DNA from: Sphingorhabdus sp. | GTDB lineage: Bacteria > Pseudomonadota > Alphaproteobacteria > Sphingomonadales > Sphingomonadaceae | NCBI GenBank assembly: GCA_051657985.1 | Contig: JBOFLS010000083.1 | Coordinates: 1,358-65,357 of the forward strand | Length of the DNA: 64,000 bases | Reading direction: 5' to 3' | Shown here: one piece after another, positions 39,503 through 64,000 of the stretch | Position numbering within the stretch: position 1 is the stretch's first letter | How the letters are laid out: every line of letters starts with the position of its first letter | The notes under the pieces: model-generated | What the model was told of the DNA's origin: nothing | The model's input: the letters and a program-made list of their open reading frames with translations, nothing else | Database searches by the model: none | Position numbers and translations under genes: made by a program

Positions 39503-40687
39503 TCAACTTTGAATTCCCACAGCGCCATCGGCGATCATTTTCTCGATCAGGTAATCGGGATAGCCAAGATCATTCAGTATCGATAGGGAATCCTGCCCCG
39601 CCACAGGAAGCGAAACGGAAGCGTTCGGTCTTGTATCACCAAAGACAAGCGGCAGGCATGGCAGCATTGTTTTGCTACCATTTGATAGCGTAACGGGTTC
39701 CAAACCCTTCGATACAGCCAGATGCGGATCTTCAAACAGCTCTTCAGGCTTACCGATAGGGGCAAAGGGCAGTCCCGTTCCTTCAAGTTTGGCAATGATT
39801 TCGGCGCTGGTATAATCCGCAATCAGTTTGCGGATCGGCGGTAAGATGCGTTCGCGGGCCAGGACGCGATCGTTATTCTTACGAATGCTCTGATCGGCCC
39901 ACAGATCGTCCAGACCGAAAAGCACGCAGAATTTTTCCCACAGGGAATCGGTGACGACACCGATGAAGACCGGATCGTCCTTTGTTTCAAAAACATCGTA
40001 GATTGCCCAAGCTGAGATGCGCGCCGGCATTGGTGCAGCCGCTTTGCCGGTAACGGCGTATTGCGCCATATGCTGACCGACAAGATACACGGTGGTTTCG
40101 AACAGGGAGGCAATGACTTTCTGCCCCTTGCCGGTCCGGTGGCGTTCCTCAAGCGCGGCAAGAATGCCGATTACGCCGAACATACCGCCGGTAACGTCGA
40201 TAACGCTCGCACCCGCGCGCAGGGGTTTGCCTGGTGGCCCGGTCATGTACGCAAGTCCACCCATCATCTGCGCGACTTCGTCCAGCGCCGTGCGCTCTTC
40301 ATAGGGGCCAGGCAAAAAGCCTTTTTCCGAACAATAGATCAGGCGAGGATTGGCTGCGCTGAGTGTCTCGTAATCGAGGCCCAACCGATCGAGCGCGCCA
40401 GGGCGGAAATTTTCAACAAGGATATCGGCACGCGCGCATAATTTATGTGCAACATCGATCCCCCCTTCGGATTTCAGATCGAGGCAGATCGATTGTTTAT
40501 GCCGGTTATACATGGGGAAATAGCCTGCACCCGATCCAAGCAGGCGTCGGGTCTGATCGCCGCCGATCGGTTCGATACGGATCACCTCAGCCCCAAGGCT
40601 GGCCAATATATGCCCAACGGCCGGACCCATCACCATATGGGTGAATTCGACAACGCGTAGGCCTGAAAGGGGGGTGGGCAGGGTCAT
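39503..40687 (-). CDS. Class III (CaiB/BaiF) CoA-transferase
   Basis: LSGLRVVEF..MVMGP, ENFRPG, NPRLIYCS and catalytic Asp in ALDEVAQMMGG. Confidence 0.92.
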   Translation of the reverse strand: MTLPTPLSGLRVVEFTHMVMGPAVGHILASLGAEVIRIEPIGGDQTRRLLGSGAGYFPMYNRHKQSICLDLKSEGGIDVAHKLCARADILVENFRPGALDRLGLDYETLSAANPRLIYCSEKGFLPGPYEERTALDEVAQMMGGLAYMTGPPGKPLRAGASVIDVTGGMFGVIGILAALEERHRTGKGQKVIASLFETTVYLVGQHMAQYAVTGKAAAPMPARISAWAIYDVFETKDDPVFIGVVTDSLWEKFCVLFGLDDLWADQSIRKNNDRVLARERILPPIRKLIADYTSAEIIAKLEGTGLPFAPIGKPEELFEDPHLAVSKGLEPVTLSNGSKTMLPCLPLVFGDTRPNASVSLPVAGQDSLSILNDLGYPDYLIEKMIADGAVGIQS

Positions 40688-41586
40688 GAAGCAAACCCCA
40701 AAGGAAGCCCGGCATCGGGGGTGAAGCCATATAACGGTTCGCCCGGTAAGGCCGCGGCAAGGATTTCCCGAACTTTCAGCAATCTCGGCAGGTCGATACC
40801 CGTTTCGATTCCCATCGCCTGCAGCATGAAAACGAGATCCTCCGTCACGATGTTTCCCGATGCCCCGGGCGCAAAAGGACAGCCGCCGATCCCTCCGAGC
40901 GATGCATCGAGTGTCGTGATGCCTTCTTCCAGCCCGGCGAGCGCATTGGCGAGGCCAAGGCCCCGTGTATTATGCAGATGAAGCGTGGTCATCTTATTCG
41001 CACCGACCGCTGCTTTCACCTTGCGGACTAGCCGTTTGACCTGCGCCGGATTGGCATAGCCGGTGGTGTCCGAAAGGCTGAATTCCTGTGCGCCCGCTTC
41101 CGCCGCCGCATCGGCAAGACGCACGACCTGGTCCTCGTTGATCGGTCCTTCCATGGTGCATCCGAAAGCCGTCGACAGCCCAACGGCAAAATGAATTCCT
41201 GCGTCCTTCGCGATCTGTGCCGCCGCGCGGATTTCCTGGAGCATCGCCGAATGGTCCTTGCGCACATTCTTGATGCTGTGCGTTTCCGACATGGAAAAGG
41301 GCATTGACATGCCGTCTACGCCAGCGTCCACCGCGCGCAGCGCGCCCTTTGCATTTGGAATCAAGGTGACCACGGTCAGACCGGGTAATGTCTTGGCAAA
41401 GGCCACAATGTCTGCGGTATCCGCCATTTGCGGAAGCAACGAAGGTGGCACGAAGCTTCCGACCTCAATCTCTCGCACCCCTGCTTCAGCTTCGGCCCTG
41501 ACCCACGCCTTTTTCGCCTCCAGCGGCATGATCCGCTGCGTCGATTGCAGACCATCGCGCGGGCCGACTTCGGAAATCAGAATCAT
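40684..41586 (-). CDS. HMG-CoA lyase family (DRE-TIM) acyl-CoA lyase
   Basis: EVGPRDGLQ, LSDTTG, HLHNTRG and GGCPFAPGASGN motifs. The start ATG 41586 overlaps the upstream stop. Confidence 0.9.
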   Translation of the reverse strand: MILISEVGPRDGLQSTQRIMPLEAKKAWVRAEAEAGVREIEVGSFVPPSLLPQMADTADIVAFAKTLPGLTVVTLIPNAKGALRAVDAGVDGMSMPFSMSETHSIKNVRKDHSAMLQEIRAAAQIAKDAGIHFAVGLSTAFGCTMEGPINEDQVVRLADAAAEAGAQEFSLSDTTGYANPAQVKRLVRKVKAAVGANKMTTLHLHNTRGLGLANALAGLEEGITTLDASLGGIGGCPFAPGASGNIVTEDLVFMLQAMGIETGIDLPRLLKVREILAAALPGEPLYGFTPDAGLPLGFAS

Positions 41587-42164
41587 AGATACACCCATGG
41601 GCGCTTTGCCGTGTCTTGCGCTTGCCAAGCGGAGATGGCGTCACGGTGTTTAAGGGTCAAGTCGACAGCATCAAGGCCCTCGAGCAGCATTAATTTCGTT
41701 TCAGCCTCTATGTCGAAATGAGGATCGTCCACCTTTTGCTTGTTCAGATCAACCGTGACGATGGCGCCTATGATCGAACGGATTGCCTTTTTGCCAAGCA
41801 CAACCGGCAACAGGCCGTTGCGAATGCAATTGTTGTAGAAGATAGGCGCGAAGCTTTCGGCGATCACGCAGTCGATACCATATTCCCTGAGCGCCCAGAC
41901 GGCATGCTCGCGACTTGATCCGCAACCAAAATTCGCGCCGGACAGCAATATGCGGGCTTCGACAAAGTCACGCCGATTCAGAATGAATTCGGGATTGCGC
42001 ACGCGTGTATCGACGTCGGTATAGCGCCAGGGCGCGAACAGACCGTCGGCGAGGCCGGTCTTGCCAGTCGACTTCATCTCGCGCGAGGGGATGATTGTGT
42101 CGGTATCGATATTGTCGAGGATCAGCGGTGCGGCGACGCTGGTGAGAGTGGCGAACGGTTTCAT
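41583..42164 (-). CDS. LeuD-like hydratase/isomerase small subunit
   Basis: NIDTDTIIP, NFGCGSSREHAVWAL and FAPIFYNNC..NG motifs. Confidence 0.92.
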   Translation of the reverse strand: MKPFATLTSVAAPLILDNIDTDTIIPSREMKSTGKTGLADGLFAPWRYTDVDTRVRNPEFILNRRDFVEARILLSGANFGCGSSREHAVWALREYGIDCVIAESFAPIFYNNCIRNGLLPVVLGKKAIRSIIGAIVTVDLNKQKVDDPHFDIEAETKLMLLEGLDAVDLTLKHRDAISAWQAQDTAKRPWVYL

Positions 42165-43525
42165 GGTGCGGTAATTCTGCCTGCAATGGCGCTGGCCGCA
42201 ACAACCTCGGGGCTGGCAATGTGCGTGCGAATGCCCGGACCCTGTCGTCCTTCGAAATTGCGGTTGGTGGAGGAGATTACCCGGCTTCCGGGCGGGAAAC
42301 TTTCACCGCCTGCATAGAAGCACAGCGAGCAGCCGCTTTCCCGCCATTGAAAGCCGGCATCGATGAAAATACGATCCAGCCCTTCGGATTCTGCCGCGCG
42401 CTTGACCGCAGTGGAGCCGGGGACAACCAACGCCAAAATGCCTTCCGCGATCTTCCTGCCCTTCACGATTTCAGCCGCACGGCGAAGATCGGAAACGCGG
42501 CTGTTGGTGCAACTGCCGATAAAAGCGACGTCGATCGGCAACCCGGCAAGGGGCTGACCGGCTTGCAAACCCATATATTCAACAGCGCGAAGGACTGTCC
42601 CTTTGGGGACAGTCCCCAAAGGGACAGTCCCTAAGATTGGGATGCTTTGTTCGGGCGAGGTGCCCCAACTGACCATAGGCGTAAGCTTACCGGCATCGAT
42701 GACAATTTCCCGATCGAAAACGGCGTCTTCATCGGTAGCAAGATCGTCCCAGTCGGGCAGGGGGTCGGGTGCGTAACGTCGACCTTTGAGATAAGCGAGG
42801 GTCTTGGCATCGGGCGCGATGATCCCGCTAAAGGCGCTGAATTCGGTCGCCATATTGCACAGCGTCATCCGTGCTTCCATGTCTAGCGCCCGGACGGCTC
42901 CGCCTGCGAACTCAAGAATATGTCCCTTGCCGCCACCTGCACCTTCTTGTGCAATCAGCGTCAGGATCATATCCTTGGCGGTGACGCCCCCGGGCAGAAT
43001 ACCATCGAACATGACACGCATCGTTCTTGGCTTTGTCACCCGCAACGTCCCGGTCGCCATCGCATGTTCGGCCTCAGACGACCCAATCCCCCAGGCAAGC
43101 GCGCCAAACGCACCTTGCGTACACGTATGACTGTCGGGCGCAATCAGGGTAAGCCCTGGTAACACGATGCCCAGTTCGGGCGAAATGACATGGGTTATGC
43201 CCTGATCGGGATCGTTCACATCGAACAAAGTGATCCCCGCCTGATGGCAGGCGGCGCGGGTTTCGGTAATAAAGGCTTCGCCGCCCTGCATCGGGGTATC
43301 ATCCCCGCGACCGGGCCTGGTATCGACGATATGATCCATGACGGCAAAGACCCGCGCCGGATCGACGACCTTGCGACCGGCTTCCGCCATCGATTTCAGC
43401 GCCGCCGCCCCGGTGCGTTCGTGTAGGAAGATGCGGTCGATCGCGATCAACGCATTTTCCTGCCCCAGGTCGGCAACGACATGGGTATCCCAGATTTTAT
43501 CGAAAAGGGTGCGCGGAAAATTCAG
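42161..43525 (-). CDS. LeuC-like [4Fe-4S] hydratase/isomerase large subunit, probably CTG-initiated
   Basis: DSHTCT.GAFG, FIGSCTN, GCSLC and STNRNFEGRQG motifs. The frame extends upstream of the ORF-track start through conserved PRTLFDKIWDTHVV. The only plausible start is CTG 43525, 6 nt after GGAGG. Confidence 0.88.
   Translation of the reverse strand: MNFPRTLFDKIWDTHVVADLGQENALIAIDRIFLHERTGAAALKSMAEAGRKVVDPARVFAVMDHIVDTRPGRGDDTPMQGGEAFITETRAACHQAGITLFDVNDPDQGITHVISPELGIVLPGLTLIAPDSHTCTQGAFGALAWGIGSSEAEHAMATGTLRVTKPRTMRVMFDGILPGGVTAKDMILTLIAQEGAGGGKGHILEFAGGAVRALDMEARMTLCNMATEFSAFSGIIAPDAKTLAYLKGRRYAPDPLPDWDDLATDEDAVFDREIVIDAGKLTPMVSWGTSPEQSIPILGTVPLGTVPKGTVLRAVEYMGLQAGQPLAGLPIDVAFIGSCTNSRVSDLRRAAEIVKGRKIAEGILALVVPGSTAVKRAAESEGLDRIFIDAGFQWRESGCSLCFYAGGESFPPGSRVISSTNRNFEGRQGPGIRTHIASPEVVAASAIAGRITAP
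42592..42630. repeat. Perfect 39-nt palindrome inside the LeuC-like gene
   Basis: ggactgtccctttggggac-a-gtccccaaagggacagtcc has 19-bp perfect arms. It encodes the GTVP-L-GTVP-K-GTV triplication. Confidence 0.9.
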
Positions 43526-43526
43526 A

Positions 43527-44015
43527 TCAGGCCTCCAGACTGCGCCAGTCTCTACTCACAAGCGTTTCCTGGATTGCGGTGCGCGTTTCGAGCTTGCCGT
43601 TCCTGATCCAGTGCCAGGTGCGGCAGCGGCTTTGCCCATCATCGGCAAGCTGGATCATCTCGTACAGATAAAGCGACGGATCGCCCTGCCGCTGCCAGTA
43701 GAGCATCACGGTGCGGTTATATTCGTCCAGCCCAACTTCTGCGGCCCAGCCGACGATCAACTCGTTATCCCACCATATCCGCTTGTCTCTATATTCGGCT
43801 GGAAAATCGCGGATGTCGGTGCGGCCGTCATCCCATGTGTAGTGATTGGTCTGGTGATAGGGGTGGGGTCCGCTATCAGGAAAGCGGCAGAACAAGCGCG
43901 ATTTATGCTGATCGATCTGTTCGTCCTTATCGTTGAAATAGGTATAGACGCCGTCCCAGACACCTTCATGGCGGGCAAGCAGCGGCATATCTTCGCGGAT
44001 CGACATGATGTTCAT
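43527..44015 (-). CDS. Hypothetical aromatic-rich beta-barrel-like protein (DUF3598/lipocalin-like, tentative)
   Basis: Translationally coupled in the operon; HEG.W.G.Y N-terminus, many Trp/Tyr and alternating strand pattern. The family name is from recall only. Confidence 0.6.
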   Translation of the reverse strand: MNIMSIREDMPLLARHEGVWDGVYTYFNDKDEQIDQHKSRLFCRFPDSGPHPYHQTNHYTWDDGRTDIRDFPAEYRDKRIWWDNELIVGWAAEVGLDEYNRTVMLYWQRQGDPSLYLYEMIQLADDGQSRCRTWHWIRNGKLETRTAIQETLVSRDWRSLEA

Positions 44016-45391
44016 TCTCCTCGGGTGCTAAGGGCAATATGAAAGGCTTTGGCTGCCGTCGCCTTGAGCAGCGCGCGGTGCTCGCGGGCGAGCCTTTCGG
44101 CAGTAATCATCGCAGGATCGAAATCGATCGCATGCTCTGCATCGGCTTCGTACCAGGGGGCAAAGAAATGACGCGCGCGAACGATATTCCATGCCTTGTT
44201 CAAATAGGTCCCATGCCGATTTGGCGAAAGGTCTGGAAAAAGTAAGGAAGGGTCGCCTTGGTGGTGATGTTGTTCAATCACTATGGCGGTTGAACCCCTT
44301 TCCTTGGCAACAACGTCAAAAACGGCTTGCCATGCGTGCCAATCTGTTGGTGCTTTACCGTTCCAATCATCAGACAGGCCATGACCTGGCGGATCCATGA
44401 CAAAAGCCGATTGTTCGAACATATCTAACGAGCGTCCTGGCGCGGGGATATGCATCGTCTCGCCGCCGCTTGAGCCGCGCCAATGGATAAGGCCGTCGAA
44501 GAGATCGGTCTGTACATGGAGAAATTGCGAATCTTGATCCTCGGCAAAGACTGCAACTTCCGGTCCGGCATGGGCCTTTAAAAAAGCGCGGCTCCGCTCT
44601 TCCAATTCCTGGGGCGTCGCCACTTTACACGCTTCCCAGTTTGCAGGCATTTGACCTAGCCGGTCGATATGCGCTTGCAGCGGATCGCCATCATAAGCGC
44701 TGATCATCACCGGCGGCGTCCTGGCACCAGCTAGAGGAATGTCGCGTGACGCGCGCAAGACCGCGCCATAGCCAAGCCGATAGGCATCGCCACTGTCGAG
44801 CATTTCCATAACGATCGCGTGCACCTTTGCCGGATCGGCATGAGGATGCGATAACCGTGCAGCCGGTCTTATATCGAACCACGGGAAAAACCAGCTTTGT
44901 TCCAGGATACGGTTCCACAGCCAAGTCAGATGTTCGCCATAAAGCGATGGCTGGAAAGGCGGCAGATAGGCTTCACCGAAGATCGCCATTTCCTCCGGCG
45001 TCCAGATCGCATAGCCTCCGACGGCAAGGCCGGTGAACAGTTCCGGATGGCGCTTCAAGGCGGTTACCAGAATGATCCCGCCCGAATGGAAGCCGTAAGC
45101 CAAGGTTCGTTCGATTCTGATCGCACGGACGAATTCGACAACCGCATCGGCATAGTCGTTTATGTCGGGATCGGCTCCATTGGCTTTTGAGGGCAGCGGA
45201 TGCGATTGGCCAAAGCCCGGCGTGTCGGGCGCAATGCAAGTGAAATGTTCGCCCCATTCCAGCATAAGCATGGCATATTCGGCTGATGATCGTGGACTTT
45301 GGTGTACCATGATCAACGGCGGTCCCTTGCCGCAGCGGCGGTAATGGACTTGTCGGCCATCAATTGTCAGATAGTGACGCGTAATCTGCAT
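44012..45391 (-). CDS. Alpha/beta-hydrolase-fold protein, two-domain, non-canonical elbow
   Basis: VHYRRCG.G.PL..VHQSP and APDTPGFGQS motifs, elbow YGFHSGG, and a degenerate second domain with MDPPGHGLSD. Start placed at ATG 45391. Confidence 0.8.
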   Translation of the reverse strand: MQITRHYLTIDGRQVHYRRCGKGPPLIMVHQSPRSSAEYAMLMLEWGEHFTCIAPDTPGFGQSHPLPSKANGADPDINDYADAVVEFVRAIRIERTLAYGFHSGGIILVTALKRHPELFTGLAVGGYAIWTPEEMAIFGEAYLPPFQPSLYGEHLTWLWNRILEQSWFFPWFDIRPAARLSHPHADPAKVHAIVMEMLDSGDAYRLGYGAVLRASRDIPLAGARTPPVMISAYDGDPLQAHIDRLGQMPANWEACKVATPQELEERSRAFLKAHAGPEVAVFAEDQDSQFLHVQTDLFDGLIHWRGSSGGETMHIPAPGRSLDMFEQSAFVMDPPGHGLSDDWNGKAPTDWHAWQAVFDVVAKERGSTAIVIEQHHHQGDPSLLFPDLSPNRHGTYLNKAWNIVRARHFFAPWYEADAEHAIDFDPAMITAERLAREHRALLKATAAKAFHIALSTRGE

Positions 45392-45397: not shown

Positions 45398-45417
45398 AAA
45401 GTTGTCCGGACAAATTT
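45398..45417. promoter_or_regulatory. Palindromic operator, copy 1
   Basis: aaagTTGTCCGGACAAattt in the 84-bp divergent promoter region between the hydrolase and isochorismatase operons. Confidence 0.8.
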
Positions 45418-45475: not shown

Positions 45476-46156
45476 ATGAACGTCGTCGGTACCAAAATGG
45501 TCAGCGATGGAAAGACCGCCAGGCAGATATTCGAGGAAGTGATAGCCAATCCGGCGCGCAAAAAGTTCGGGTTCGGAGAAAAACTGGCGATCATCAATGT
45601 CGATTTCCAGCAGGCCTATACGCGGACGGACATGTTCGTGACCGCCTATGAAACCGATCCGCGGCAGATCGAATATGCCAATAGCATCTCCCGATTGGCG
45701 CGGGCAAAAGGCATGCCGGTAGTCTGGACTCGTGTTGCTTATATGGACAATGCGGATGACGCCGGTGTTTGGGGAACGCGCACCAATATGCCCGATAGCC
45801 TGCAGAATATCAAATACGGGTCCGACCGCCATGCTTATGATCCGCGATGCGAGATCGATGCGAACGATCTGCAATATACCAAACGCATGCCGAGCGCGTT
45901 TTTCGAAACGCAGTTGGCGAGCTATCTGGTTTGGCACAAGGTCGATACCGTCGTGGTGACCGGTGGCAGCACGTCGGGCTGCGTTCGTGCAACCGCAGTG
46001 GATGCTCTCTCGCATGGCTATCGCACGATTGTGCCGATCGAAACCTGCGCAGACAAGCATGAGAGCTACCATTTCGCCAATCTGACCGACCTGCAGTTAA
46101 AATATGCCGATGTCGAACCGGTGCAAGCAGTGATCGACTGGCTGGAGGCGCGCTGA
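45476..46156 (+). CDS. Isochorismatase-family cysteine amidohydrolase (NicF / N-carbamoylsarcosine amidase-like)
   Basis: Asp-Lys-Cys triad in INVDFQ, YTKRMPSAF and GSTSGCVRAT. Start ATG 45476 with GGAAGGA RBS. Confidence 0.88.
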   Translation: MNVVGTKMVSDGKTARQIFEEVIANPARKKFGFGEKLAIINVDFQQAYTRTDMFVTAYETDPRQIEYANSISRLARAKGMPVVWTRVAYMDNADDAGVWGTRTNMPDSLQNIKYGSDRHAYDPRCEIDANDLQYTKRMPSAFFETQLASYLVWHKVDTVVVTGGSTSGCVRATAVDALSHGYRTIVPIETCADKHESYHFANLTDLQLKYADVEPVQAVIDWLEAR

Positions 46157-47031
46157 TGCAGGAGCGCAGCGCCGACCCCGGACTATATGATTATTCTTCC
46201 TATCGTGGTCGCAAGAAAATCACTTGGCCAGGCGGAAAGGCTGTTGCTGTCTGGATTGCGCCAAATCTGGAATATTATGAAATCAATCCCCCCGCGCATC
46301 CCAAGCGAAAGGCCTGGGGGCGTCCGCATCCCGATGTCGTAGGTTGGTCGCATCGCGATCATTCGAACCGGGTTTCGCATTGGCGGATGGCCGATGTTAT
46401 GACCAGGCATGGCTTTCCGGGATCGGTTTCGCTTTCGGTCGCGCTTTGCCAACATCATCCAGAAGTGGTTGCCGATGCCGATGCCCGTGGCTGGGAATTC
46501 TTCAGTCATGGTATCTATAATACGCGTTATGCTTATGATATGTCGGAGGAACAGGAGCGGTCGATTATTGAAGATTCGATCGCAACGGTGCGTGAATGCA
46601 CCGGCCAGACAATCCGTGGCTGGCTTGCCCCCGCGCTGACGCACACCCCGCGCACGCTCGATCTGATCGCTGAATATGGTCTCGATTATACCTGCGATCT
46701 GTATCATGACGATCAAGTGCAGTCGGTAAAGACCAAGTCGGGCGAGCTGGTTTCGATCCCCTACAGTCTGGAAGTCAACGACCACTACGGCTTCTTCGTC
46801 TACAACATGTCGGGCCGCGAATATGCCGACACGCTGATCCGGCAATTCGAACGACTGGCAACCGAGGGTGAGGCTTCGGGCACGGTCATGTGCATCCCGC
46901 TGCATGCCTATCTTATCGGGCAGCCGCACCGCATCGGCCCGTTCGAGCAGGCCCTGAAGCATATCGCCGCCGATGGTCGTGCCTGGATTGCGACGGCAGG
47001 GCAAATCGTCGATGCGTGGAAGGCACAGTAA
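46156..47031 (+). CDS. Polysaccharide-deacetylase-fold hydrolase 1 (PuuE-like)
   Basis: ITWPGGKAVAVW..PNLEY, RD.SNRV, SHG and RGWLAP motifs; IPYSLEVND; HAYLIGQPHRI. Confidence 0.82.
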   Translation: MQERSADPGLYDYSSYRGRKKITWPGGKAVAVWIAPNLEYYEINPPAHPKRKAWGRPHPDVVGWSHRDHSNRVSHWRMADVMTRHGFPGSVSLSVALCQHHPEVVADADARGWEFFSHGIYNTRYAYDMSEEQERSIIEDSIATVRECTGQTIRGWLAPALTHTPRTLDLIAEYGLDYTCDLYHDDQVQSVKTKSGELVSIPYSLEVNDHYGFFVYNMSGREYADTLIRQFERLATEGEASGTVMCIPLHAYLIGQPHRIGPFEQALKHIAADGRAWIATAGQIVDAWKAQ

Positions 47032-57241: not shown

Positions 57242-59749
57242 TCAGAATTTATATTTTGCCCTAACTGTCCATTCCATCGGTCGATTTAAATAGGAGTAAT
57301 TGGCCAATGTCGATTGTACGAAACTTTCGTTGAAGCAATTGGTACAATCGACTGAAAGCGACCATTTGTTATCGGGGCCTTTGAGTGCGAGGCCGGCGTT
57401 CACCAACCAAGCCGCCTCGCTGAAGGATCCGACAATGAACCGACCATTGTTCAGATTTGCGGGAAAAGTGCCATTTGTCCCGGTTACCGAACCGCTGTAG
57501 ATCGTAAGATTGCTGGTACCGGTTTCCTGATCCGATCGATAGGTGGCGTTAACCGACGGAACGATCGCCAAGTCATTGCCGATTTCTGCGCGATAACTTC
57601 CTCCGATGGCCAACGACCATTTAGGTGTACGCACTGGGGTCGAGATATTGCCTTGCGGATTGACAATTCCCTGTCCGCAAGATGCTGTTCCCGGACCTCC
57701 TGCGATATTCCCTGCAGCAAGAGCTGCACGACATTGAGCCTGTAGGCCCGCTGAAGTCGGAATTCCATAAATGTCGATAAGAGGAGCGCCATTTGGGATG
57801 ATATAGCGGTCATCTTGATAACCGACGTTGGCGTATAGATTCAGGCCATCGACTGGTTGAAAGCTCAGTTCCGCTTCGATCCCCTTGTTCCTGTAGTCGG
57901 CAAAATTCTGGGTAATGAATACCGGAGCACCGACCGGGGGAAGGAAAGCCGAAGGCGTTTGTAGATTTTTCACATCCATCCAGAAAAACGTCACATTTGC
58001 CCGAACCCGGCGATCGAAGAGATCGGACTTAATGCCGGCTTCATAAGACCAGACCTTTTCCGGCGCGAAAGGCGTCAGTAAGGTAGCTGAGGTTGCCCGT
58101 GCATTCCACCCGCCCGATTTGAACCCGCGCGTTGCCGAAGCAAAAAGCAGGACGTCTTCGTTGGGTTTGAAGTTGATCGCAAAACGCGGCGTCCATAATT
58201 TTGCGGTTTGCGAGCGAGGAATGGCTCGTCCGCTTGGAGAGACAAGCAAGCTATTGTCAAGACATGTGGCCTCAATGCTGCCATCGTTGCAGGAAGCCCG
58301 ATTATCTGCGATACTGAAAGTCTTCTTTTCATCAGTGTAACGAATACCCGCCGTCAGTTTGATCTGCTCTGTAATGTTGAAATCCGCTTGAGCATAGCCT
58401 GCAAGTGCTGTCGTTTTATTCCGAAGGATGCGATCTCCGAGCAACAATGAAAACCCGCCCGGCACAACCGTAAACGGAGGGAAGGGCAATGCGTTTAGCG
58501 AAAATATATCGGCAAAATCGGTGCGGTTGCGCTCATCCAGATAATAACCACCGGCTACGAAATCCACAAAACCATCGCCAAAACTTCCTGCAATTTTGAT
58601 TTCCTGTGAAAACTGCTCGTGCTGGCCATCGTTTAAGATGGTAAATCCGCCGCGTGTAAATCCGCGAACTACGGGATTTGGTGTGCTTATGCTTGGAGCG
58701 CCTCGACCATCAAAGAAGTCGAGCGCGAATTTTTGGCTCACATTGACATAGCCTGTAATGAGGCTGAGCGTTATGTCGCTTGAAAGGTCTATATCGAGAT
58801 TGGAGGTAATAAGGTCGGTTGCAGAACGGTTCCCTTGCAGATAATTCGCCTTTTCTCCGCGTATTACCAAAGGCGCATAAGTTGACGTTGATACCGTATT
58901 GCCAACCTGAAGGCCTGTTGTTGCAAACCGGCCCTTGCAATCATCGGAATCGGCTGGATTACAATCAAAATTCAGGATGTTTTCGCCATTGGCTTCAAGA
59001 TGCGCATAAGCTGCTTTCCAGCGAGCGCCGCCAAGATCGCCTGACAAGCCAAGCCGAACCCCCCAGCCATCATCGTCGTTCATACGCTGGCCTGTCGTGA
59101 CGTTTTTCACATATCCGTCATCGTTCTGCCAATAGCCACTAATTTTCGCCCCAAAACTGGGAGCCAGCGGGATATCAACCGATGCACGGGCAATCTTGCG
59201 ATCGTAGCGGCCATAACCGATCTCCGCATAGCCGCCGAAATCAGGGCCAGGTTCCCGCATGACCACGCTTACGGCACCGCCGGTTGTATTACGTCCGAAT
59301 AGCGTACCCTGGGGTCCACGCAAAACCTCTATGCGTTCGACATCGAACAGAGAAAGATTGTTCGCATTCTGGCGACTGAGATAGATATCATCTACATAAG
59401 TGCCCACCGGAGGATCAAAGGTCGCGATGGTCTCGGTATTGCCCAATCCTCTCAAAAAATAGGCATTAGCCGAGCCTATTCCGGTATTGTTCTGGGCTGT
59501 CATATTGGGAATAAACTGACCCAGCTGCAAAGCATTCGAAACACCCTGAGCCTCAAGCTGTTCAGACGAAAAAGCCGAAATCGCGATGGGTACATCTTGA
59601 ACATTTTCATTGCGGCGCTGCGCGGTAACGACGATTTCCTCGATCCCGCCCTGTTCGGCAGCATCATCGCCAGCGTCTTGAGCAAAGCTTGGAAAAGCAG
59701 TGATCATTACGGCAACCGCCGTTCCGCTTTTCAACATAGTGCGTAACAT
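57242..59749 (-). CDS. TonB-dependent receptor
   Basis: Signal peptide, TonB box EEIVVTAQRR, plug motif RIEVLRGPQGTLFGRNTTGGA, C-terminal aromatic strand ending YKF. Confidence 0.95.
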   Translation of the reverse strand: MLRTMLKSGTAVAVMITAFPSFAQDAGDDAAEQGGIEEIVVTAQRRNENVQDVPIAISAFSSEQLEAQGVSNALQLGQFIPNMTAQNNTGIGSANAYFLRGLGNTETIATFDPPVGTYVDDIYLSRQNANNLSLFDVERIEVLRGPQGTLFGRNTTGGAVSVVMREPGPDFGGYAEIGYGRYDRKIARASVDIPLAPSFGAKISGYWQNDDGYVKNVTTGQRMNDDDGWGVRLGLSGDLGGARWKAAYAHLEANGENILNFDCNPADSDDCKGRFATTGLQVGNTVSTSTYAPLVIRGEKANYLQGNRSATDLITSNLDIDLSSDITLSLITGYVNVSQKFALDFFDGRGAPSISTPNPVVRGFTRGGFTILNDGQHEQFSQEIKIAGSFGDGFVDFVAGGYYLDERNRTDFADIFSLNALPFPPFTVVPGGFSLLLGDRILRNKTTALAGYAQADFNITEQIKLTAGIRYTDEKKTFSIADNRASCNDGSIEATCLDNSLLVSPSGRAIPRSQTAKLWTPRFAINFKPNEDVLLFASATRGFKSGGWNARATSATLLTPFAPEKVWSYEAGIKSDLFDRRVRANVTFFWMDVKNLQTPSAFLPPVGAPVFITQNFADYRNKGIEAELSFQPVDGLNLYANVGYQDDRYIIPNGAPLIDIYGIPTSAGLQAQCRAALAAGNIAGGPGTASCGQGIVNPQGNISTPVRTPKWSLAIGGSYRAEIGNDLAIVPSVNATYRSDQETGTSNLTIYSGSVTGTNGTFPANLNNGRFIVGSFSEAAWLVNAGLALKGPDNKWSLSVDCTNCFNESFVQSTLANYSYLNRPMEWTVRAKYKF

Positions 59750-59798
59750 TCACATCCTCCTCTGAAAAACTTAATCTTGCTCAACCCCGCAATTTATG

Positions 59799-59816
59799 AT
59801 TTGTCCGGACAACTTT
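59799..59816. promoter_or_regulatory. Palindromic operator, copy 2
   Basis: atTTGTCCGGACAActtt in the divergent region between the receptor and the membrane protein. Its reverse complement is identical over 18 nt to 45398-45415. Confidence 0.8.
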
Positions 59817-59862: not shown

Positions 59863-60543
59863 ATGGTTCTAGCCGATTATGCCTATCCGACGCTAGTGTA
59901 TGTTCATCTGCTTCTGTTCGTGTTGTGGCTGGGTGCCGACGTCGGAGTGTTCTTGCTCGGCCAGCATTTTCGCAAGCGTCATGTCTATTCTCTCGACCAA
60001 CGTATTGCACTGCTGAAACTGCTTGTGATCGTCGATCTGACGCCGCGTACCGCCTGGGCGCTCATGGTGCCGCTTTCGTTGACCGTCAGTTCTATGGGCG
60101 GCTGGTGGGAGGTTCCCGCTTTGCTGGTCTGGGGATCTTGGGCAGTGGCCGCTTTTTGGCTTTGGCTCGTCTTCGATGCGCATGCGCACGACATGACCCC
60201 ACGGGCCGCACGCGATCGGCGGTGGGAAGGTTGGCTGCGTTATCTGTTGTGCGCTGCCTATTTATGGCTGGGGCTGCAGTCGGTGCTGACCGGTAACCCG
60301 ATCGCCCCTGGATGGCTGGCATGGAAGGCGCTGCTCTTTGGACTGATCTTTGCTGCAGCGATCATGATCGATGTGACGTTCAAGCCCGTAGGTGCGCAGC
60401 TTGGCCGCTTGCTCTCCGAGGGATCATCCGACGAAACCGAAATTCCGCTTTTGCAGACAATGAATCGTACGCGGCTGTGGGTCTGGTGCGTCTACGCACT
60501 ACTGGTTGCCACCTCTTGGCTCGGCGTAGTGAAACCTACATGA
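59863..60543 (+). CDS. Hypothetical integral membrane protein
   Basis: 226 aa, about 5-6 hydrophobic segments, His in the first helix (VHLLLFVLWLG). No family recognised. Confidence 0.75.
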   Translation: MVLADYAYPTLVYVHLLLFVLWLGADVGVFLLGQHFRKRHVYSLDQRIALLKLLVIVDLTPRTAWALMVPLSLTVSSMGGWWEVPALLVWGSWAVAAFWLWLVFDAHAHDMTPRAARDRRWEGWLRYLLCAAYLWLGLQSVLTGNPIAPGWLAWKALLFGLIFAAAIMIDVTFKPVGAQLGRLLSEGSSDETEIPLLQTMNRTRLWVWCVYALLVATSWLGVVKPT

Positions 60544-60560: not shown

Positions 60561-60582
60561 TAAAGTTGTCCGGACAACTTTA
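60561..60582. promoter_or_regulatory. Palindromic operator, copy 3 (perfect 22-mer) abutting a -35-like hexamer
   Basis: TAAAGTTGTCCGGACAACTTTA, starting at the last base of TTGACT (60556-60561), 18 nt upstream of the CitE-like start. Confidence 0.85.
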
Positions 60583-60600
60583 CAGAAAGTCGTGATCGCA

Positions 60601-61410
60601 ATGCAATCCATACTCTTCGTTCCCGGCAATCGGCCGGAGCGTTTCGCTAAAGCGTTGGCAAGCGGGGCGGATTGCGTATGCATCGATCTGGAAGATGCGG
60701 TTCCCGCTGCCAATAAGGCGAGTGCAAGGGATGCAGCGCTTGCCGCCATTACCGATGATGCGCGTCTGGCGCTTCGGATCAACGCCGTCTCAACCCGTGC
60801 CGGACTAGCCGATATTCTTGCCCTTACCGAGACTGGAAAGCGACCGTCGCTGCTGTTCCTGCCAATGGTCGAAGCCGCTGCCGAGGTCGCAATCGTACGT
60901 TCGCTGCTTGCCGATGCGGACATAGGTTTCGTACCGCTGATTGAAACCGTCGCAGGGCTGCGCAACGCCGATGCGATCGCGGCGGAGCCTAATGTAGCAT
61001 CGATCATGCTGGGTGGGGCGGATTTTTCGGCACAGCTCGGCGTCACGCTAAGTTGGGAACCCTTGTTATTTGCGCGAAGTCAATTGGTGATGGCGGCGGC
61101 CGGCGCGGGGAAATCGGTAATCGATGTGCCGTATATCCATCTCGATGACGAAGCCGGGCTGATCGAAGAGGCGCAGAAAGCAAAGGCGCTTGGTTTTTCG
61201 GCAAAGGCTGCAATTCATCCTGCACAGATTGCACCAATCCATTCGGTTTTCCGTCCGATTGCCAGCGAAATTGCCGAAGCCAAGGAAGCAGAGGATGCTT
61301 TTGCCTCGGCAAATGGTGCCGCGGTGCGTTTCAGAGGCCGGATGCTCGAAGCGCCCGTGATGGCACGCTATCGACAGATACTTTCTTTGAAGGACAGGAT
61401 AGATGCGTGA
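60601..61410 (+). CDS. CitE/HpcH-family acyl-CoA lyase (citryl/citramalyl/malyl-CoA lyase-like)
   Basis: SILFVPG, DLEDAV, LRIN, LIET..GL, G.ADF and AIHPAQI motifs. Start placed at ATG 60601. Confidence 0.9.
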   Translation: MQSILFVPGNRPERFAKALASGADCVCIDLEDAVPAANKASARDAALAAITDDARLALRINAVSTRAGLADILALTETGKRPSLLFLPMVEAAAEVAIVRSLLADADIGFVPLIETVAGLRNADAIAAEPNVASIMLGGADFSAQLGVTLSWEPLLFARSQLVMAAAGAGKSVIDVPYIHLDDEAGLIEEAQKAKALGFSAKAAIHPAQIAPIHSVFRPIASEIAEAKEAEDAFASANGAAVRFRGRMLEAPVMARYRQILSLKDRIDA

Positions 61411-61912
61411 AGCCGTGAAGGAAGTCGCACCAGGGCGTTTCCGTGAAGTACAAGGTCGTTTTTTTGAAGATTTCGAAGTTGGCCATATTTATGAACACCG
61501 CCCTGGACGGACTATCACCGATGCCGACAACGTCTGGTTCACGCTTCTGACGATGAATACCCACCCGGCGCATTTCGACTATGAATTTTCGAAGAAGACC
61601 GAATTTGGCAAGCCTCTTGTCGTCAGCCCGCTGACGATTGCGCTGATGACAGGCATGAGCGTTTCAGACACCAGCGGCAAGGCGATCGCCAATCTTGGTT
61701 GGGACGAAGTACGGATGGTGCATCCACTGTTCGTTGGCGATACACTCTATTGCGAGAGCGAAGTGCTTGAAAAACGCGAAAGCAAGAGCCGACCCGATCA
61801 GGGAATCGTCACCTTCAAGACGATCGGCAAAAATCAGGAAGGGATCATTGTGAGCCATTACAAGCGCACCGTGCTTGTATGGAAGAAGGGTTGCGGCCCG
61901 GTAGATGATTAA
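61403..61912 (+). CDS. MaoC-family (hotdog-fold) acyl-CoA hydratase
   Basis: GRFFEDF.VG, RTITDADN..F..LTMNTHP.HFD and ANLG.DEV...HP.FVGDT motifs. Confidence 0.9.
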   Translation: MREAVKEVAPGRFREVQGRFFEDFEVGHIYEHRPGRTITDADNVWFTLLTMNTHPAHFDYEFSKKTEFGKPLVVSPLTIALMTGMSVSDTSGKAIANLGWDEVRMVHPLFVGDTLYCESEVLEKRESKSRPDQGIVTFKTIGKNQEGIIVSHYKRTVLVWKKGCGPVDD

Positions 61913-61923
61913 GGAGCTCCGAT

Positions 61924-63102
61924 ATGGCAACCGCCCCCAATCTTAGTTCGGCGCCAATGAGCGCCGATGAAGAAACAGCATTGCTCGACGCGATTCAGAA
62001 ATGGATCGACAGGGAGGTCGCGCCCAATGTGCAGAAATATGATCATGACGATATCTGGCCGGAAGAGATCGTCCAGCAGATGACCGAGATGGGCTTGTTC
62101 GGAGCTACTATCGGCCAGCAATATGGTGGGCTGGGTCTTTCTGCGGTAACATATGCGAAGATCGTTGCGCTGATATCGTCCTATTGGATGGCCATTACCG
62201 GCATCTTCAATTCCCACCTAATTATGGCCTGTGCAGTCGAACGTTTTGGAACGCCAGCACAAAAAGCGAAATGGCTGCCCAAATTCGCGAGCGGTGAGAT
62301 TCGCGGCGGTCTGGCGCTTACAGAACCAAATGCAGGCACCGATCTTCAAGCGATCCGCACTGTCGCGGAAAGAGACGGCGACGATTATGTGATCAATGGA
62401 ACCAAGACCTGGATTTCCAATGGGATCAACGGCAGCTGTTTCGCGCTGCTGGCAAAGACCGATTCCAAGGCGGAGCCGCGCTACAAAGGGATGAGCTTTT
62501 TTATCGCGCCCAAACAGGAAGGCTTCACTACGGGAAAGAAATTCAAAAAACTGGGCTATAACTGCATTGATAGCGCCGAATTGATCTTCGACAATTATCG
62601 CATCCCGGCCGAAAATCTGATTGGCGGTGTCGAAGGGCAAGGCTTCTTTCAGGCCACCGGAGGGCTCGAACTTGGGCGTATCAACGTTGCTGCGCGCGGC
62701 GTCGGGCTTTCGGAAGGGGCCTTGCGGATGGCAACCGAATATGCGCAGCTTCGCCAGACGATGGGCAAGCCGATCAGCGAGCACCAAGCAATCCAGCTTT
62801 ATCTCGGTGAAATGGTTACGCGTGCTCGCGCGGCGCGCTTGCTCACTTTCGATGCAGCCGAAGCTTACGACCGCGGCGAACGCTGTGACATGCAGGCGGG
62901 CATGGCAAAATATTTCGCCTCCGAAGCCGCCGTCGAAAATAGCCAGACCGCGATGCGTATATTCGGCGGTTACAGCTATTCGAAGGAATATGACATCGAA
63001 CGGTTGTACCGGGATTCGATGCTGATGTGCATCGGCGAGGGGACCAACGAGATGCAGCGCATGATTATTTCCAAACAATGGATTGCCAGGAACAAGATTT
63101 GA
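61924..63102 (+). CDS. Acyl-CoA dehydrogenase
   Basis: LALTEPNAGTD, INGTKTWISNG, GRINVAA, MAKYFASE, FGGYSY and IGEGTNE motifs. Confidence 0.93.
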   Translation: MATAPNLSSAPMSADEETALLDAIQKWIDREVAPNVQKYDHDDIWPEEIVQQMTEMGLFGATIGQQYGGLGLSAVTYAKIVALISSYWMAITGIFNSHLIMACAVERFGTPAQKAKWLPKFASGEIRGGLALTEPNAGTDLQAIRTVAERDGDDYVINGTKTWISNGINGSCFALLAKTDSKAEPRYKGMSFFIAPKQEGFTTGKKFKKLGYNCIDSAELIFDNYRIPAENLIGGVEGQGFFQATGGLELGRINVAARGVGLSEGALRMATEYAQLRQTMGKPISEHQAIQLYLGEMVTRARAARLLTFDAAEAYDRGERCDMQAGMAKYFASEAAVENSQTAMRIFGGYSYSKEYDIERLYRDSMLMCIGEGTNEMQRMIISKQWIARNKI

Positions 63103-64000
63103 GCGTTCGCCTCCCCTTAAAAGGCTTTCGCATCATCAGCGCGGAACAATATGGTGCCGGTCCTTACGGCACGCTCTTTCTGGCGCAGATGGGGGCGGAG
63201 GTTATCAAGATCGAGCCGCCAAAAGGCGGGGATACCGCGCGCAGCGTTGGTCCGCATTTCTTACGTGAGGGCGAAAGCCTGTATTTCCAGACCTTTAATC
63301 TAAATAAGCGTTCGTTGACTTTGGACTTGATGACAGAGCAAGGCCAAGAGGTGCTGCACCGACTGGTGAAAGACGCGCATGTCGTCGCCAACAATCTGCG
63401 TGGTGACGTTCCTGCAAAAGCGGGGCTGACCTACGAACAGCTGAAGATTGTCAATCCAGCTATAGTCTGTGCTCATGCCTCTGCCTATGGTCGCGATAAC
63501 GACCGCGCGAAATGGCCGGGGTATGACTATCTGATGCAGGCCGAGGCTGGGTTCTGCGCATTGACTGGCGAACCGGATGGTCCTCCCGCGCGCATGGGGC
63601 TGTCGATGGTCGATTTTGCCACCGGTACGCAAATGGCGGTTGGCTTGCTTGCAGCTTTGCTCGATGCACAACGGACGGGCGTCGGCTGCGATATCGACGT
63701 CGATCTGTTGTCGAGCGCGCTGCATCAAATGACCTATCCCGCGATCTGGTATATGAACGAGGGCGACGTGACCCAGCGGGTAGAACGATCGGCGCATCCC
63801 TCGGCTACCCCCAGCCAGATGTTCCGCGCCGCCGATGGGTGGATGTTCGTGATGGCACAGATCCCGAAATTCTGGCCAATTCTCTGCGAACGGATTGGTT
63901 ATCGCGAATTGATCGACGACGCGCGCTTCGCGAATTCCAAGGCGCGATTGGCGAACCGATCCGTTTTGACCGAAATTCTAGATGCGATCTTTGTATCCCA
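63099..64000 (+). CDS. Second class III (CaiB/BaiF) CoA-transferase, runs off the window end
   Basis: Absent from the ORF track. Manual translation from TTG 63099 (overlapping the upstream TGA) gives MSVRLPLKGFRIISAEQYGAGPYGT..LAQMGAEVIKIEP...NLNKRSLTLDL and later GYDYLMQAEAG. Confidence 0.88.
   Translation, partial: MSVRLPLKGFRIISAEQYGAGPYGTLFLAQMGAEVIKIEPPKGGDTARSVGPHFLREGESLYFQTFNLNKRSLTLDLMTEQGQEVLHRLVKDAHVVANNLRGDVPAKAGLTYEQLKIVNPAIVCAHASAYGRDNDRAKWPGYDYLMQAEAGFCALTGEPDGPPARMGLSMVDFATGTQMAVGLLAALLDAQRTGVGCDIDVDLLSSALHQMTYPAIWYMNEGDVTQRVERSAHPSATPSQMFRAADGWMFVMAQIPKFWPILCERIGYRELIDDARFANSKARLANRSVLTEILDAIFVS

Follow-up and report, generated by a model that had tools for sequence, protein, structure and literature searches.

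Related systems and the position of the island

Blastobacter sp. A17p-4 reportedly degrades cyclic imides by an imidase followed by a half-amidase. In Aspergillus nidulans, the cyclic imidase HxnM precedes the amidase HxnN in such a route, where, as with the imidase of Pseudomonas putida YZ-26, a cyclic imide is opened hydrolytically and the half-amide is deamidated to a dicarboxylate; HxnM is PuuE-related, shares 64% identity with the P. putida imidase and is structurally closest to 3qbu (HpPgdA) (PMC9304392). Within this fold group, the pairing of a hydrolase that opens the ring with a half-amidase that acts next is thus an established design. The present analysis concerns a window of 64,000 nucleotides (nt), the whole stretch of DNA analysed, from the freshwater sphingomonad Sphingorhabdus sp. 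(contig C83, JBOFLS010000083.1, positions 1358–65357; assembly of 3.48 Mb in 282 contigs, 56.7% GC), and within it an island of 24 genes at positions 39503–64000. At the core of the island stands a cassette of one isochorismatase-family amidase and two PuuE/CE4-like hydrolases, and the proposed chemistry leads from a cyclic imide to a half-amide, from there to an alkyl-maleate or alkyl-succinate, and then through hydration to C–C cleavage, a reading to which a probability of about 0.55 is given.

HxnM belongs to the CE4/PuuE-related fold group, and its nearest structure, 3qbu, is also matched by both PuuE-like proteins of the island. Unlike in the HxnM/HxnN route, however, the predicted ring-opener of the island is an obligate tandem pair of paralogues with 32% identity, the predicted half-amidase is an isochorismatase-family cysteine hydrolase and not an amidase-signature enzyme, and the cassette, whose imidase activity is putative, is joined into a regulon of 25–45 kb with diacid-degrading modules. 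NicF and Ami, from nicotinate and nicotine catabolism, share with the island amidase the isochorismatase fold and an aligned Asp-Lys-Cys triad and are its best PDB matches; in contrast to these systems, no NicAB, NicC, NicX, NicD or NicE families adjoin the island gene, the last four being absent from the island, and the proposed product would be hydrated by a LeuCD paralogue and not isomerised to fumarate.

The lower steps have other counterparts. In the nicotinate fermentation of Eubacterium barkeri, the dimethylmaleate hydratase DmdAB works together with a 2,3-dimethylmalate lyase, and HbzIJ is a maleate hydratase; likened by description and not by sequence, the island would share with them a LeuCD-type Fe-S hydratase acting on a substituted maleate before a C–C cleavage. 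The likeness to DmdAB goes further in two plasmid versions of the cassette, pJE1 of Sphingomonas and p1 of Burkholderia plantarii, where a PrpB-like ICL/PEPM-family lyase follows directly after LeuCD, whereas the window has no ICL/PEPM gene, carries a CoA-transferase and an HMGL-type lyase, and comes from an aerobic alphaproteobacterium. Chloroflexus aurantiacus has a succinyl-CoA:D-citramalate CoA-transferase and an (R)-citramalyl-CoA lyase, and this combination of an HMGL-family enzyme and a family III CoA-transferase cleaves (R)-citramalate; the island, again likened by description, has a family III CoA-transferase adjoining an HMGL-family enzyme, presumably for an (R)-2-hydroxy-2-alkylsuccinyl-CoA, but its context is catabolic and the hydroxy acid would come from the LeuCD paralogue. 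The itaconate system of Pseudomonas and Yersinia (Ict-Ich-Ccl/RipABC) resembles the island in having its three families in one operon, to which the island adds an acyl-CoA dehydrogenase and, in the related genomes G011 and G024, MmgE/PrpD genes; the island proteins nevertheless score 224 against a cut-off of 375 bits and 239 against 340, and their module lies under the operator of the amidohydrolase cassette.

By the defining features of the nic, allantoin and itaconate pathways, the island is a member of none of them; it appears to work like an imidase/half-amidase route joined to C5-dicarboxylate assimilation modules. The literature search brought up neither a description of such a cluster nor a report of bacteria catabolising alkyl maleimides. 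An earlier note on this DNA, written from the sequence alone, had suggested that the gene set matches no single described cluster, and the curated hidden Markov models of Pfam and NCBIfam agree, since they place no gene in a known pathway at equivalog level: no NCBIfam equivalog model scores above its cut-off for any of the 24 genes or for six downstream genes of G011.

A single operator-controlled regulon and its extent

According to the open reading frame (ORF) listing and the Pfam and NCBIfam scans of positions 39503–64000, the 24 genes are contiguous between pstSCAB and the window end and form four or five transcription units, in which most junctions are overlaps of 1 or 4 nt. In transcription order, opA (minus strand) encodes an alpha/beta-hydrolase, a 162-aa protein, LeuC, LeuD, an HMGL-like lyase and a family III CoA-transferase; opB (plus) encodes the isochorismatase, PuuE-like proteins 1 and 2, an aldehyde dehydrogenase (ALDH), a VOC lipoprotein and an MDR oxidoreductase; opC (minus) encodes a TonB-dependent receptor, an MFS transporter, a VAO-type FAD oxidoreductase, a nitrilase-fold protein, a protein resembling S-adenosylmethionine (SAM)-dependent methyltransferases (MTase-like), and 120-aa and 239-aa proteins; and opD (plus) encodes a 226-aa membrane protein, then an HpcH/CitE lyase, a MaoC hydratase, an acyl-CoA dehydrogenase (ACAD) and a CoA-transferase that is cut. 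This bears out the inventory and the family assignments of the earlier note, from which the MTase-like gene and the VOC lipoprotein had been omitted.

A 20-nt palindrome, AAAGTTGTCCGGACAACTTT, is found at 45398, 59797 and 60562, and the palindrome TTGTCCGGACAA heads an operon at each of its three occurrences. The first operator copy (AAAGTTGTCCGGACAAATTT, 45398–45417) stands in the divergent promoter of opA and opB, the second occupies 59797–59816, and the third, a perfect palindrome, occupies 60562–60581 between a TTGACT and the HpcH start. The 12-nt core occurs three times in the window against 0.01 expected from shuffles, and nowhere else in the 3.48-Mb assembly is it exact; two looser copies, AAATTTGTCTGGACATATTT and AAATTTGTCCAGACAAATTT, lie on contig C247 (L001) at positions 8376 and 12217, one preceding a DUF1838 gene and the other between a second TonB receptor and a DUF1330 gene. 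In other genomes, the core is letter-identical in 51 of the 52 intergenic regions between the alpha/beta-hydrolase and isochorismatase genes, a set that includes the gammaproteobacteria Steroidobacter and Peristeroidobacter, and the operator also stands upstream of the units headed by the 239-aa protein, the MFS transporter, the TonB receptor, the 226-aa membrane protein and HpcH in various genomes (before HpcH in L085, L091 and L097). In G011, a complete genome of the same genus, all exact copies fall within 173–211 kb (173002, 179199, 198905 and 210573), and a copy with one mismatch lies at 177904. The operator is common to the operon heads of the window and conserved across genomes, and the island is therefore one regulon, of which the window genes are a part; the proposal that one palindrome links three promoters is thereby upheld.

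Neither the window nor the complete G011 island contains a regulator gene, and the clustering of all ORFs from 80 loci gave no recurrent helix-turn-helix gene beside the main cluster type, GntR/HutC genes occurring only in variant loci. The 226-aa gene was considered as the regulator and rejected, its product being a membrane protein. Operators of the shape T-GT-N4-AC-A are common for the GntR family, and GntR-family regulators adjoin the Burkholderia and Acidiphilium versions of the cassette; these neighbours would fit the island operator, which has this shape. A deeply conserved operator with no regulator encoded nearby is an oddity of the system.

The contig ends 168 nt beyond the window, and the island is therefore truncated. 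In G011, it spans approximately 171.7 to 216.5 kb, that is, about 45 kb and about 41 genes, and is bordered by a putative AbiE toxin-antitoxin pair and by polysaccharide-synthesis genes. The putative AbiE pair at the border fits the acquisition of the 45-kb island as a mobile block. The left border gene, at 170.8–171.7 kb of G011:C1 (L103 5965–7735), is of the AbiEii toxin type, and a 296-aa ORF before it may be the AbiEi partner. In G011 and G024, opD continues with a third CoA-transferase (CoAT3), a protein of about 280 aa, two MmgE/PrpD genes, a PaaK-like ligase, an amidase-signature enzyme, an SDR, a third PuuE-like gene (PuuE3) and an enoyl-CoA hydratase (ECH); further operator-headed units of G011 encode two-domain VOC proteins, an MDR of the alkenal-reductase type, a second MFS transporter, a second alpha/beta hydrolase, a CMD-family protein, a TonB receptor, a flavin amine oxidase of the PPOX family and a lipocalin-domain protein. 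The earlier description of a complete uptake-to-central-metabolism pathway must be amended in this respect, as the window lacks the two PrpD genes, the ligase, the amidase, PuuE3, the further VOC proteins, the lipocalin and the amine oxidase of the 45-kb island. In the assembly of the window itself, PuuE3 and ECH are encoded at the end of C247, after a cut ORF at the place of the SDR, and this contig probably continues the island after a gap. Elsewhere on C247 (725–7108), a cupin_8 (JmjC-like) gene, a tryptophan-halogenase-family flavoprotein gene and a gene for a 987-aa TonB-dependent receptor form a separate unit, in which no operator copy was seen.

Co-conservation, spread and plasmid versions

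PuuE2, used as the marker protein, has 3682 homologues (counted as protein clusters) at E ≤ 1e-20, and its relatives occur in at least 571 species genomes in a scan of one genome per species; the closest named relatives are from Sphingomonadaceae, with Sphingorhabdus contaminans at 78% and metagenome-assembled genomes of Sphingopyxis and Sphingomonas. All 24 window proteins were compared by tblastn with 47 loci of other species that had a full 10-kb flank on each side. PuuE1 is kept in all 47 and the isochorismatase in 46; CoAT1, HMGL, LeuC and LeuD are each kept in 42; the 120-aa protein in 40, the alpha/beta hydrolase in 38, ALDH and the MTase-like protein in 36 each, and the VAO oxidoreductase in 34; the 162-aa and nitrilase-fold proteins in 33 each; and the 239-aa protein and the MFS transporter in 31 each. 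Sixteen genes are thus co-conserved in 31–47 of the 47 loci. The VOC lipoprotein is found in 16 loci and the MDR in six, yet G011 and G024 have an MDR orthologue, and fragments of the TonB receptor (at least 45% identity) are found in 21, although this gene sits at the edge of the fetched flank. The earlier note had made its proposal depend on the genes being conserved together, and these counts show that they are, across many species, in another proteobacterial class and on plasmids.

In searches with concatenated proteins, G011, G018 and G024 agreed with the window in gene content and order, and orthologues of the 226-aa membrane protein adjoin the receptor in G018 and G024; G026 and G039 have a reduced core of the isochorismatase, PuuE1, PuuE2, HMGL, CoA-transferase and LeuCD. 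Within the genus, a PuuE2 orthologue is present in four of the 25 genomes, the window's own included, and also in three other families of the order. Patchy occurrence in the genus together with presence in other families is the pattern of an accessory, mobile island, and the regulon has spread horizontally among Sphingomonadales and beyond. A group of variant loci (L052, L055, L056, L065, L083, L093 and L099, for example in Sphingomonas sp. ERG5 and Novosphingobium aquae) has no LeuCD and no lyases and keeps only the isochorismatase, PuuE1, PuuE2, a gene like that of the 120-aa protein and, in some, an MTase-like gene; a subset of them (L056, L065 and relatives) has in addition a GntR/HutC regulator, an SDR and a 309-aa VOC-like protein.

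The marker protein is also encoded on 25 plasmids, where compact versions of the cassette are found. On pJE1 of Sphingomonas, HMGL, the isochorismatase, two PuuE genes, LeuC and LeuD are followed by an ICL/PEPM-family lyase, an alcohol dehydrogenase, an acyl-CoA synthetase and an Asp/Glu-racemase-family gene, and the other side carries a second LeuCD and a CoA-transferase. On p1 of B. plantarii, a GntR gene accompanies the isochorismatase, two PuuE genes and an MFS gene, which are divergent from LeuCD, an FAD dehydrogenase, an ICL/PEPM lyase, a porin, an electron-transfer flavoprotein, an ACAD and a CoA-transferase; here, LeuCD is archaeal-type and non-orthologous. A plasmid of Acidiphilium multivorum has CoAT and HMGL, the isochorismatase, two PuuE genes, LeuCD, an FAD dehydrogenase as on p1, a porin and an MFS gene, while pAt of Agrobacterium has a TetR gene with two PuuE genes, an MFS gene and an amidase. 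The ICL/PEPM proteins of the plasmids are PrpB-like (253 and 277 bits against a cut-off of 354), and the two FAD dehydrogenases have flavocytochrome-c fumarate reductases and the tricarballylate dehydrogenase TcuA as their nearest relatives. In these clusters, the TcuA-like enzyme would turn a substituted succinate into a cis-enedioate, the aconitase-family enzyme would hydrate it, and a PrpB/dimethylmalate-lyase-like or HMGL-like enzyme would cleave the product. That one logic has been rebuilt repeatedly from different parts around the cassette is the strongest argument for the proposed core, and it lends independent support to the sequence of imide, half-amide, substituted maleate, LeuCD and CoA-dependent lyase that had first been suggested from the window. 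With their porin and MFS genes, the plasmid versions point to small substrates, such as alkyl-substituted succinimide or maleimide rings.

The amidohydrolase cassette

The isochorismatase-family amidase (45476–46156, plus strand, PF00857), the proposed half-amide amidohydrolase, has its best PDB match in 4l07/4l08 (E 2.7e-30, over 191 residues), followed by N-carbamoylsarcosine amidases including 1nba (E 1e-27 and 2e-23) and by 3ot4/3uao (E 4e-21). 4l07/4l08 and 3ot4/3uao are the maleamate amidases Ami and NicF, respectively; the positions of the Asp-Lys-Cys motif (VDF, TKR and TSGCVRAT) are aligned with those of 4l07 and 3ot4/3uao. The gene is translationally coupled upstream of the PuuE pair in 46 of the 47 loci, and an amidase-signature enzyme takes its place on pAt of Agrobacterium.

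PuuE1 (46156–47031, plus, PF01522), the proposed ring-opening imidase subunit, and PuuE2 (47031–47936, plus, PF01522) are 32% identical, always adjacent and translationally coupled, PuuE1 having 1-nt overlaps on both sides; this obligate heteropair is an enzymological oddity. The PuuE allantoinase model TIGR03212 is the best NCBIfam model for both, at 113.7 bits for PuuE1 and 87.9 bits for PuuE2, well below the cut-off of 424.6. In the PDB, PuuE1 matches 1z7a, 3cl6 and 3qbu, and PuuE2 matches 3cl6 and 3qbu; the matches to 3qbu (E 3e-6 and 1e-8) tie the pair to imidases indirectly. Judged by eye, one motif pattern (LE..., H-x-x-x, P-L/M-H) is common to the two paralogues. Families of urate and allantoin catabolism, including allantoate, ureidoglycolate, urease and sarcosine genes, were found neither in the window nor in the G011 island.

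Hydratase, lyases and CoA-transferases

The aconitase-family hydratase consists of a LeuC-like large subunit (42161–43525, minus, PF00330 E 1e-140) and a LeuD-like small subunit (41583–42164, minus, PF00694). The leuC model TIGR00170 gives 479 bits, below its cut-off of 560, for an ORF that is N-terminally short. A separate housekeeping LeuCD on C16 has 45% (LeuC) and 39% (LeuD) identity to the island pair, which is therefore a paralogue, and the substrate loop of the island LeuD is polar (SREMKSTGK), whereas that of the housekeeping protein is hydrophobic (AAWLKTISR). The translation start of LeuC is most likely the CTG at 43525–43523, as judged from the sequence: the conserved N-terminus PRTLFDKIWD (PRTLFDKIWDTHVV..., 43523–43556) lies upstream of any in-frame ATG, GTG or TTG, the start reads GGAGG-N6-CTG, the CTG is 1 nt after the stop of the 162-aa gene, and several orthologues have an ATG at the equivalent position. 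Inside the LeuC paralogue and in frame, a perfect palindrome of 39 nt, GGACTGTCCCTTTGGGGAC A GTCCCCAAAGGGACAGTCC, occupies 42592–42630 and encodes part of GTVPLGTVPKGTV, in a variable surface loop that is about five residues longer than in 13 orthologues.

The HMG-CoA-lyase-like (DRE-TIM) acyl-CoA lyase (40684–41628, minus, PF00682 E 9e-51) reaches 273 bits with the subfamily model PRK05692, whose cut-off is 246; a paralogue with 43% identity is encoded on C201, and the true start is probably an internal ATG near 41586–41598. CoAT1, the family III CoA-transferase that closes opA (39503–40687, minus, PF02515 E 6e-106), has succinate-glutarate and mesaconate transferases as its best NCBIfam models, all far under their cut-offs.

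A second module lies in opD, where the combination of the RipABC-type operon, that is, a family III CoA-transferase, a MaoC hydratase and an HpcH lyase, is present. The HpcH/CitE-type acyl-CoA lyase (60601–61410, plus, PF03328) has RipC_Ccl as its best NCBIfam model (224 bits, cut-off 375), and the MaoC-type (R)-enoyl-CoA hydratase (61403–61912, plus, PF19315 and PF01575) has RipB_Ich (239 bits, cut-off 340); ACAD follows at 61924–63102 (plus, PF00441, PF02771 and PF02770), and then CoAT2, a family III CoA-transferase whose gene runs off the end of the window and contig (63105–64000, plus, PF02515, profile positions 1–289 of 366). By these homologies, the second module appears to be itaconate-like with shifted specificity, with the acyl-CoA dehydrogenase serving saturated diacids.

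Proposed pathway and alternative readings

From the observed gene content, operator, co-conservation and family homologies, we infer all substrates and reactions as follows. A small carboxylated nitrogen compound would enter through the TonB-dependent receptor, or through a porin in the plasmid versions, and then through the oxalate/lactate-type MFS transporter. The PuuE/CE4-like pair would hydrolyse a cyclic C–N bond, most likely that of a five-membered, alkyl-substituted maleimide or succinimide; the Ami/NicF-like amidase would take off the amide nitrogen as ammonia to give an alkyl-substituted maleate or succinate; and the LeuCD paralogue would hydrate the cis-enedioate to a 2-hydroxy acid. 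CoAT1 would activate the hydroxy acid, and the HMGL-like enzyme would cleave it into an acyl-CoA and a 2-oxo acid, which in the methyl case would be acetyl-CoA and pyruvate. The second module, with ACAD, MaoC, HpcH and two or three further CoA-transferases, would handle saturated or isomeric diacids of the alkylsuccinate, itaconate or mesaconate type via the (S)-series. The VAO oxidoreductase, ALDH, the Tat-exported nitrilase-fold protein, the MTase-like protein with the 120-aa protein, and the two beta-barrel proteins probably convert a precursor into the imide.

Several points weigh against this scheme. No enzyme reaches an equivalog cut-off, and every function is consequently assigned at the level of the family. 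The amidase matches N-carbamoylsarcosine amidase with an E-value of 1e-27, near the 3e-30 of 4l07, which leaves room for a ureide or carbamoyl substrate, and PuuE itself opens a hydantoin ring and not an imide. At least seven conserved genes, those of the MTase-like, 120-aa, 239-aa, 162-aa, alpha/beta-hydrolase, nitrilase-fold and VAO proteins, are given no definite step in it; a SAM-dependent methyltransferase does not fit easily into a catabolic route, a compound of maleimide size would not be expected to need a TonB-dependent receptor, and the VOC, alpha/beta-hydrolase, CMD and amine-oxidase genes of the extended island could indicate oxidative cleavage of a larger heteroaromatic compound.

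A narrower form of the imide scheme, unlikely but worth stating, is that the regulon is the missing bacterial route for mineralising the monopyrrolic compounds with which the breakdown of chlorophyll, heme and bilins ends, possible substrates being methyl-ethyl-maleimide, methyl-vinyl-maleimide, hematinic acid and their reduced succinimide forms. The cassette would open and deamidate each substituted imide; the LeuCD, PrpD, CoA-transferase and lyase modules would take the dialkyl-maleates or tricarboxylates, and the flavoproteins, ALDH and barrel proteins would trim dipyrrolic or formyl- or hydroxy-pyrrolinone precursors. Fold-level hints and chemical plausibility weakly suggest such a tetrapyrrole-derived substrate, which was the leading guess of the earlier note: the fold of the 162-aa protein is nearest to S-type bilin lyases and nitrobindins, the extended island has a lipocalin and a PPOX-family amine oxidase, the plasmid versions have PrpB/dimethylmalate-lyase-like enzymes, the polar LeuD loop fits a substituent other than isopropyl, and the literature search returned no bacterial catabolism of such compounds.

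Alternatively, though this is rather unlikely, a hydroxypyridine or pyridone could be degraded aerobically as in the nicotinate, picolinate or mimosine pathways, with the island as the lower branch. The heteroaromatic ring would then be cleaved oxidatively by a VOC-type dioxygenase or by the unusual alpha/beta-fold protein, the PuuE pair would deformylate or deacylate an N-acyl-(alkyl)maleamate, the isochorismatase would be NicF, and LeuCD would replace maleate isomerase. The structures nearest to the isochorismatase, 4l07 and 3ot4/3uao (Ami and NicF), agree with this, as do the habit of CE4-fold enzymes to act as de-N-acylases, the several VOC proteins, second alpha/beta hydrolase and CMD-family protein of the extended island, and the Asp/Glu-racemase-family gene of pJE1, since maleate isomerase belongs to that family. 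However, a molybdenum hydroxylase, a flavin monooxygenase and a NicX-type dioxygenase were not found in the window or the G011 island, the VOC protein of the window is a small lipoprotein kept in 16 of the 47 loci only, and the compact plasmid clusters have no oxygenase, yet combine the cassette with LeuCD and a lyase.

Distinctly unlikely is a role in assimilating free C5-branched dicarboxylates (itaconate, mesaconate, citraconate, methylsuccinate and citramalate), with no nitrogen heterocycle involved and the amidohydrolases serving only side substrates such as mono-amides. HpcH and MaoC are indeed closest to RipC_Ccl and RipB_Ich; ACAD, the three CoA-transferases and the two PrpD/MmgE genes resemble the itaconate cluster of P. 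aeruginosa, and LeuCD, HMGL and CoA-transferase fit a conversion of citraconate into (R)-citramalate and (R)-citramalyl-CoA. The tightest conservation is nevertheless that of the three amidohydrolases (46–47 of 47) and not of the Rip-like genes, whose scores are well under the curated cut-offs, and the cassette is also found apart from any diacid enzymes, in the variant loci and on pAt of Agrobacterium, where a dedicated amidase and a transporter accompany it.

Catabolism of a ureide, a hydantoin or an N-carbamoyl compound, in which the PuuE pair would act on a hydantoin-type ring like PuuE on allantoin, by opening it, and the isochorismatase like an N-carbamoylsarcosine amidase, is very unlikely: PuuE allantoinase is the best NCBIfam model for both PuuE-like proteins, but at 114 and 88 bits against a cut-off of 425, and N-carbamoylsarcosine amidases are the second-best PDB matches of the isochorismatase (E 1e-27 and 2e-23), yet the island has no urate, allantoate, ureidoglycolate, urease or sarcosine genes, and LeuCD, the lyase, the CoA-transferases and the TcuA-like and PrpB-like enzymes of the plasmids would be left with no role. 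That unrelated operons, with no pathway in common, lie side by side by chance is barely credible, for although VOC, MDR and the TonB receptor vary between genomes and the island is patchy in the genus (PuuE2 orthologue in 4 of 25 genomes), the exact operator heads three operons of the window and is conserved across classes, all exact sites of the complete genome G011 lie in one island, and 16 genes are co-conserved in 31–47 of the 47 loci.

Upper-pathway genes and proteins with no family

The island is bordered on the left by pstS (38289–39329) of the pstSCAB operon (35257–39329). The aldehyde dehydrogenase (47933–49354, plus, PF00171 E 5e-106) has succinic semialdehyde dehydrogenase as its best NCBIfam model, at 372 bits against a cut-off of 521; it is followed by two accessory proteins, a VOC/glyoxalase-fold protein with a lipoprotein-type signal (LAAC; 49351–49932, plus, PF00903) and an MDR oxidoreductase of the zinc-ADH/quinone-reductase type (49937–50959, plus, PF00107 and PF08240). 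The TonB-dependent outer-membrane receptor that heads opC (57242–59749, minus, PF07715 and PF00593) precedes an MFS transporter of the oxalate/formate-lactate type (55920–57173, minus, PF07690; 132 bits with the SfMCT model, cut-off 320) and a VAO/PCMH-type FAD oxidoreductase (54372–55916, minus, PF01565), whose nearest PDB entries are D-lactate dehydrogenase, glycolate oxidase and D-2-hydroxyglutarate dehydrogenase, over the FAD domain only.

Three proteins have unusual enzymological features: a Tat-exported nitrilase fold with Glu-Arg-Ser, an alpha/beta hydrolase with a histidine elbow, and a SAM-methyltransferase-like protein in a catabolic regulon. The nitrilase-superfamily protein (53230–54360, minus, PF00795 E 2e-32) bears a twin-arginine (RR) signal and has Glu-Arg-Ser instead of the Glu-Lys-Cys triad of the active C-N hydrolases of this superfamily; its motifs LPEY, YRRL and IASEE are invariant and the RR signals are kept in nine orthologues from several genera, and its sequence suggests either a non-canonical periplasmic hydrolase or a binding protein. 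The 459-aa alpha/beta-hydrolase-fold protein that heads opA (44012–45391, minus, PF00561) has the elbow G-F-H-(S/T)-G-G, in which His102 and both flanking glycines are invariant in 54 orthologues; as His102 is invariant while the following serine is sometimes threonine, the histidine is placed in the nucleophile position. Its C-terminal extension of about 190 aa has no family match. The 400-aa MTase-like protein (52031–53233, minus) joins a class I SAM-methyltransferase fold to an N-terminal half of no known family, and both its Pfam matches (PF13649 and others) and its PDB matches cover residues 200–310 only. Its gene is always coupled, in the window translationally, to that of the 120-aa protein (51672–52034, minus), also in the variant loci that keep only the cassette. 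The 120-aa protein, which is kept in the variant loci that have no LeuCD, has no Pfam or NCBIfam match, and neither does the 226-aa polytopic membrane protein (59863–60543, plus), recognised by its hydrophobic sequence.

Two further proteins are described from predicted structures. The 162-aa protein (43527–44015, minus), which has no Pfam or NCBIfam match, is predicted as a ten-stranded calycin-type beta-barrel (AlphaFold2 predicted local distance difference test, pLDDT, 92.6), and its best Foldseek matches are BFA1/DUF3598, Ycf58 (3bdr), the S-type phycobiliprotein lyase CpeS (4tq2) and nitrobindins, with TM scores of 0.6–0.67 and identities of 10–15%. The 239-aa protein (50956–51675, minus), which matches no family, is predicted as beta-barrel-like (pLDDT 85.8), and its best Foldseek matches are DUF structures only, namely DUF1849 (6ntr) and DUF1089; the pJE1 protein at the equivalent position, an equivalence of position only, is annotated DUF3108. 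Profile searches of these two family-less proteins against PDB sequences gave nothing.

Biological meaning

If the proposed reading is correct, the island represents a widespread pathway, its marker gene having relatives in at least 571 species genomes, 3682 protein clusters and conjugative plasmids, in which nitrogen would be removed from small cyclic imides and the resulting branched C4–C8 diacids would be burned. In the curated libraries and the literature searched, nothing ties this imide-to-diacid chemistry to bacterial genes. Cultured carriers exist, namely Sphingorhabdus contaminans KCTC 32445, Sphingobium chungbukense DJ77, Sphingobium jiangsuense DSM 26189 and Steroidobacter agaridevorans among others, which makes the question of the substrate directly testable. 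If the substrates were tetrapyrrole-derived maleimides, the regulon would be relevant to what happens to the nitrogen of chlorophyll and heme in the environment.

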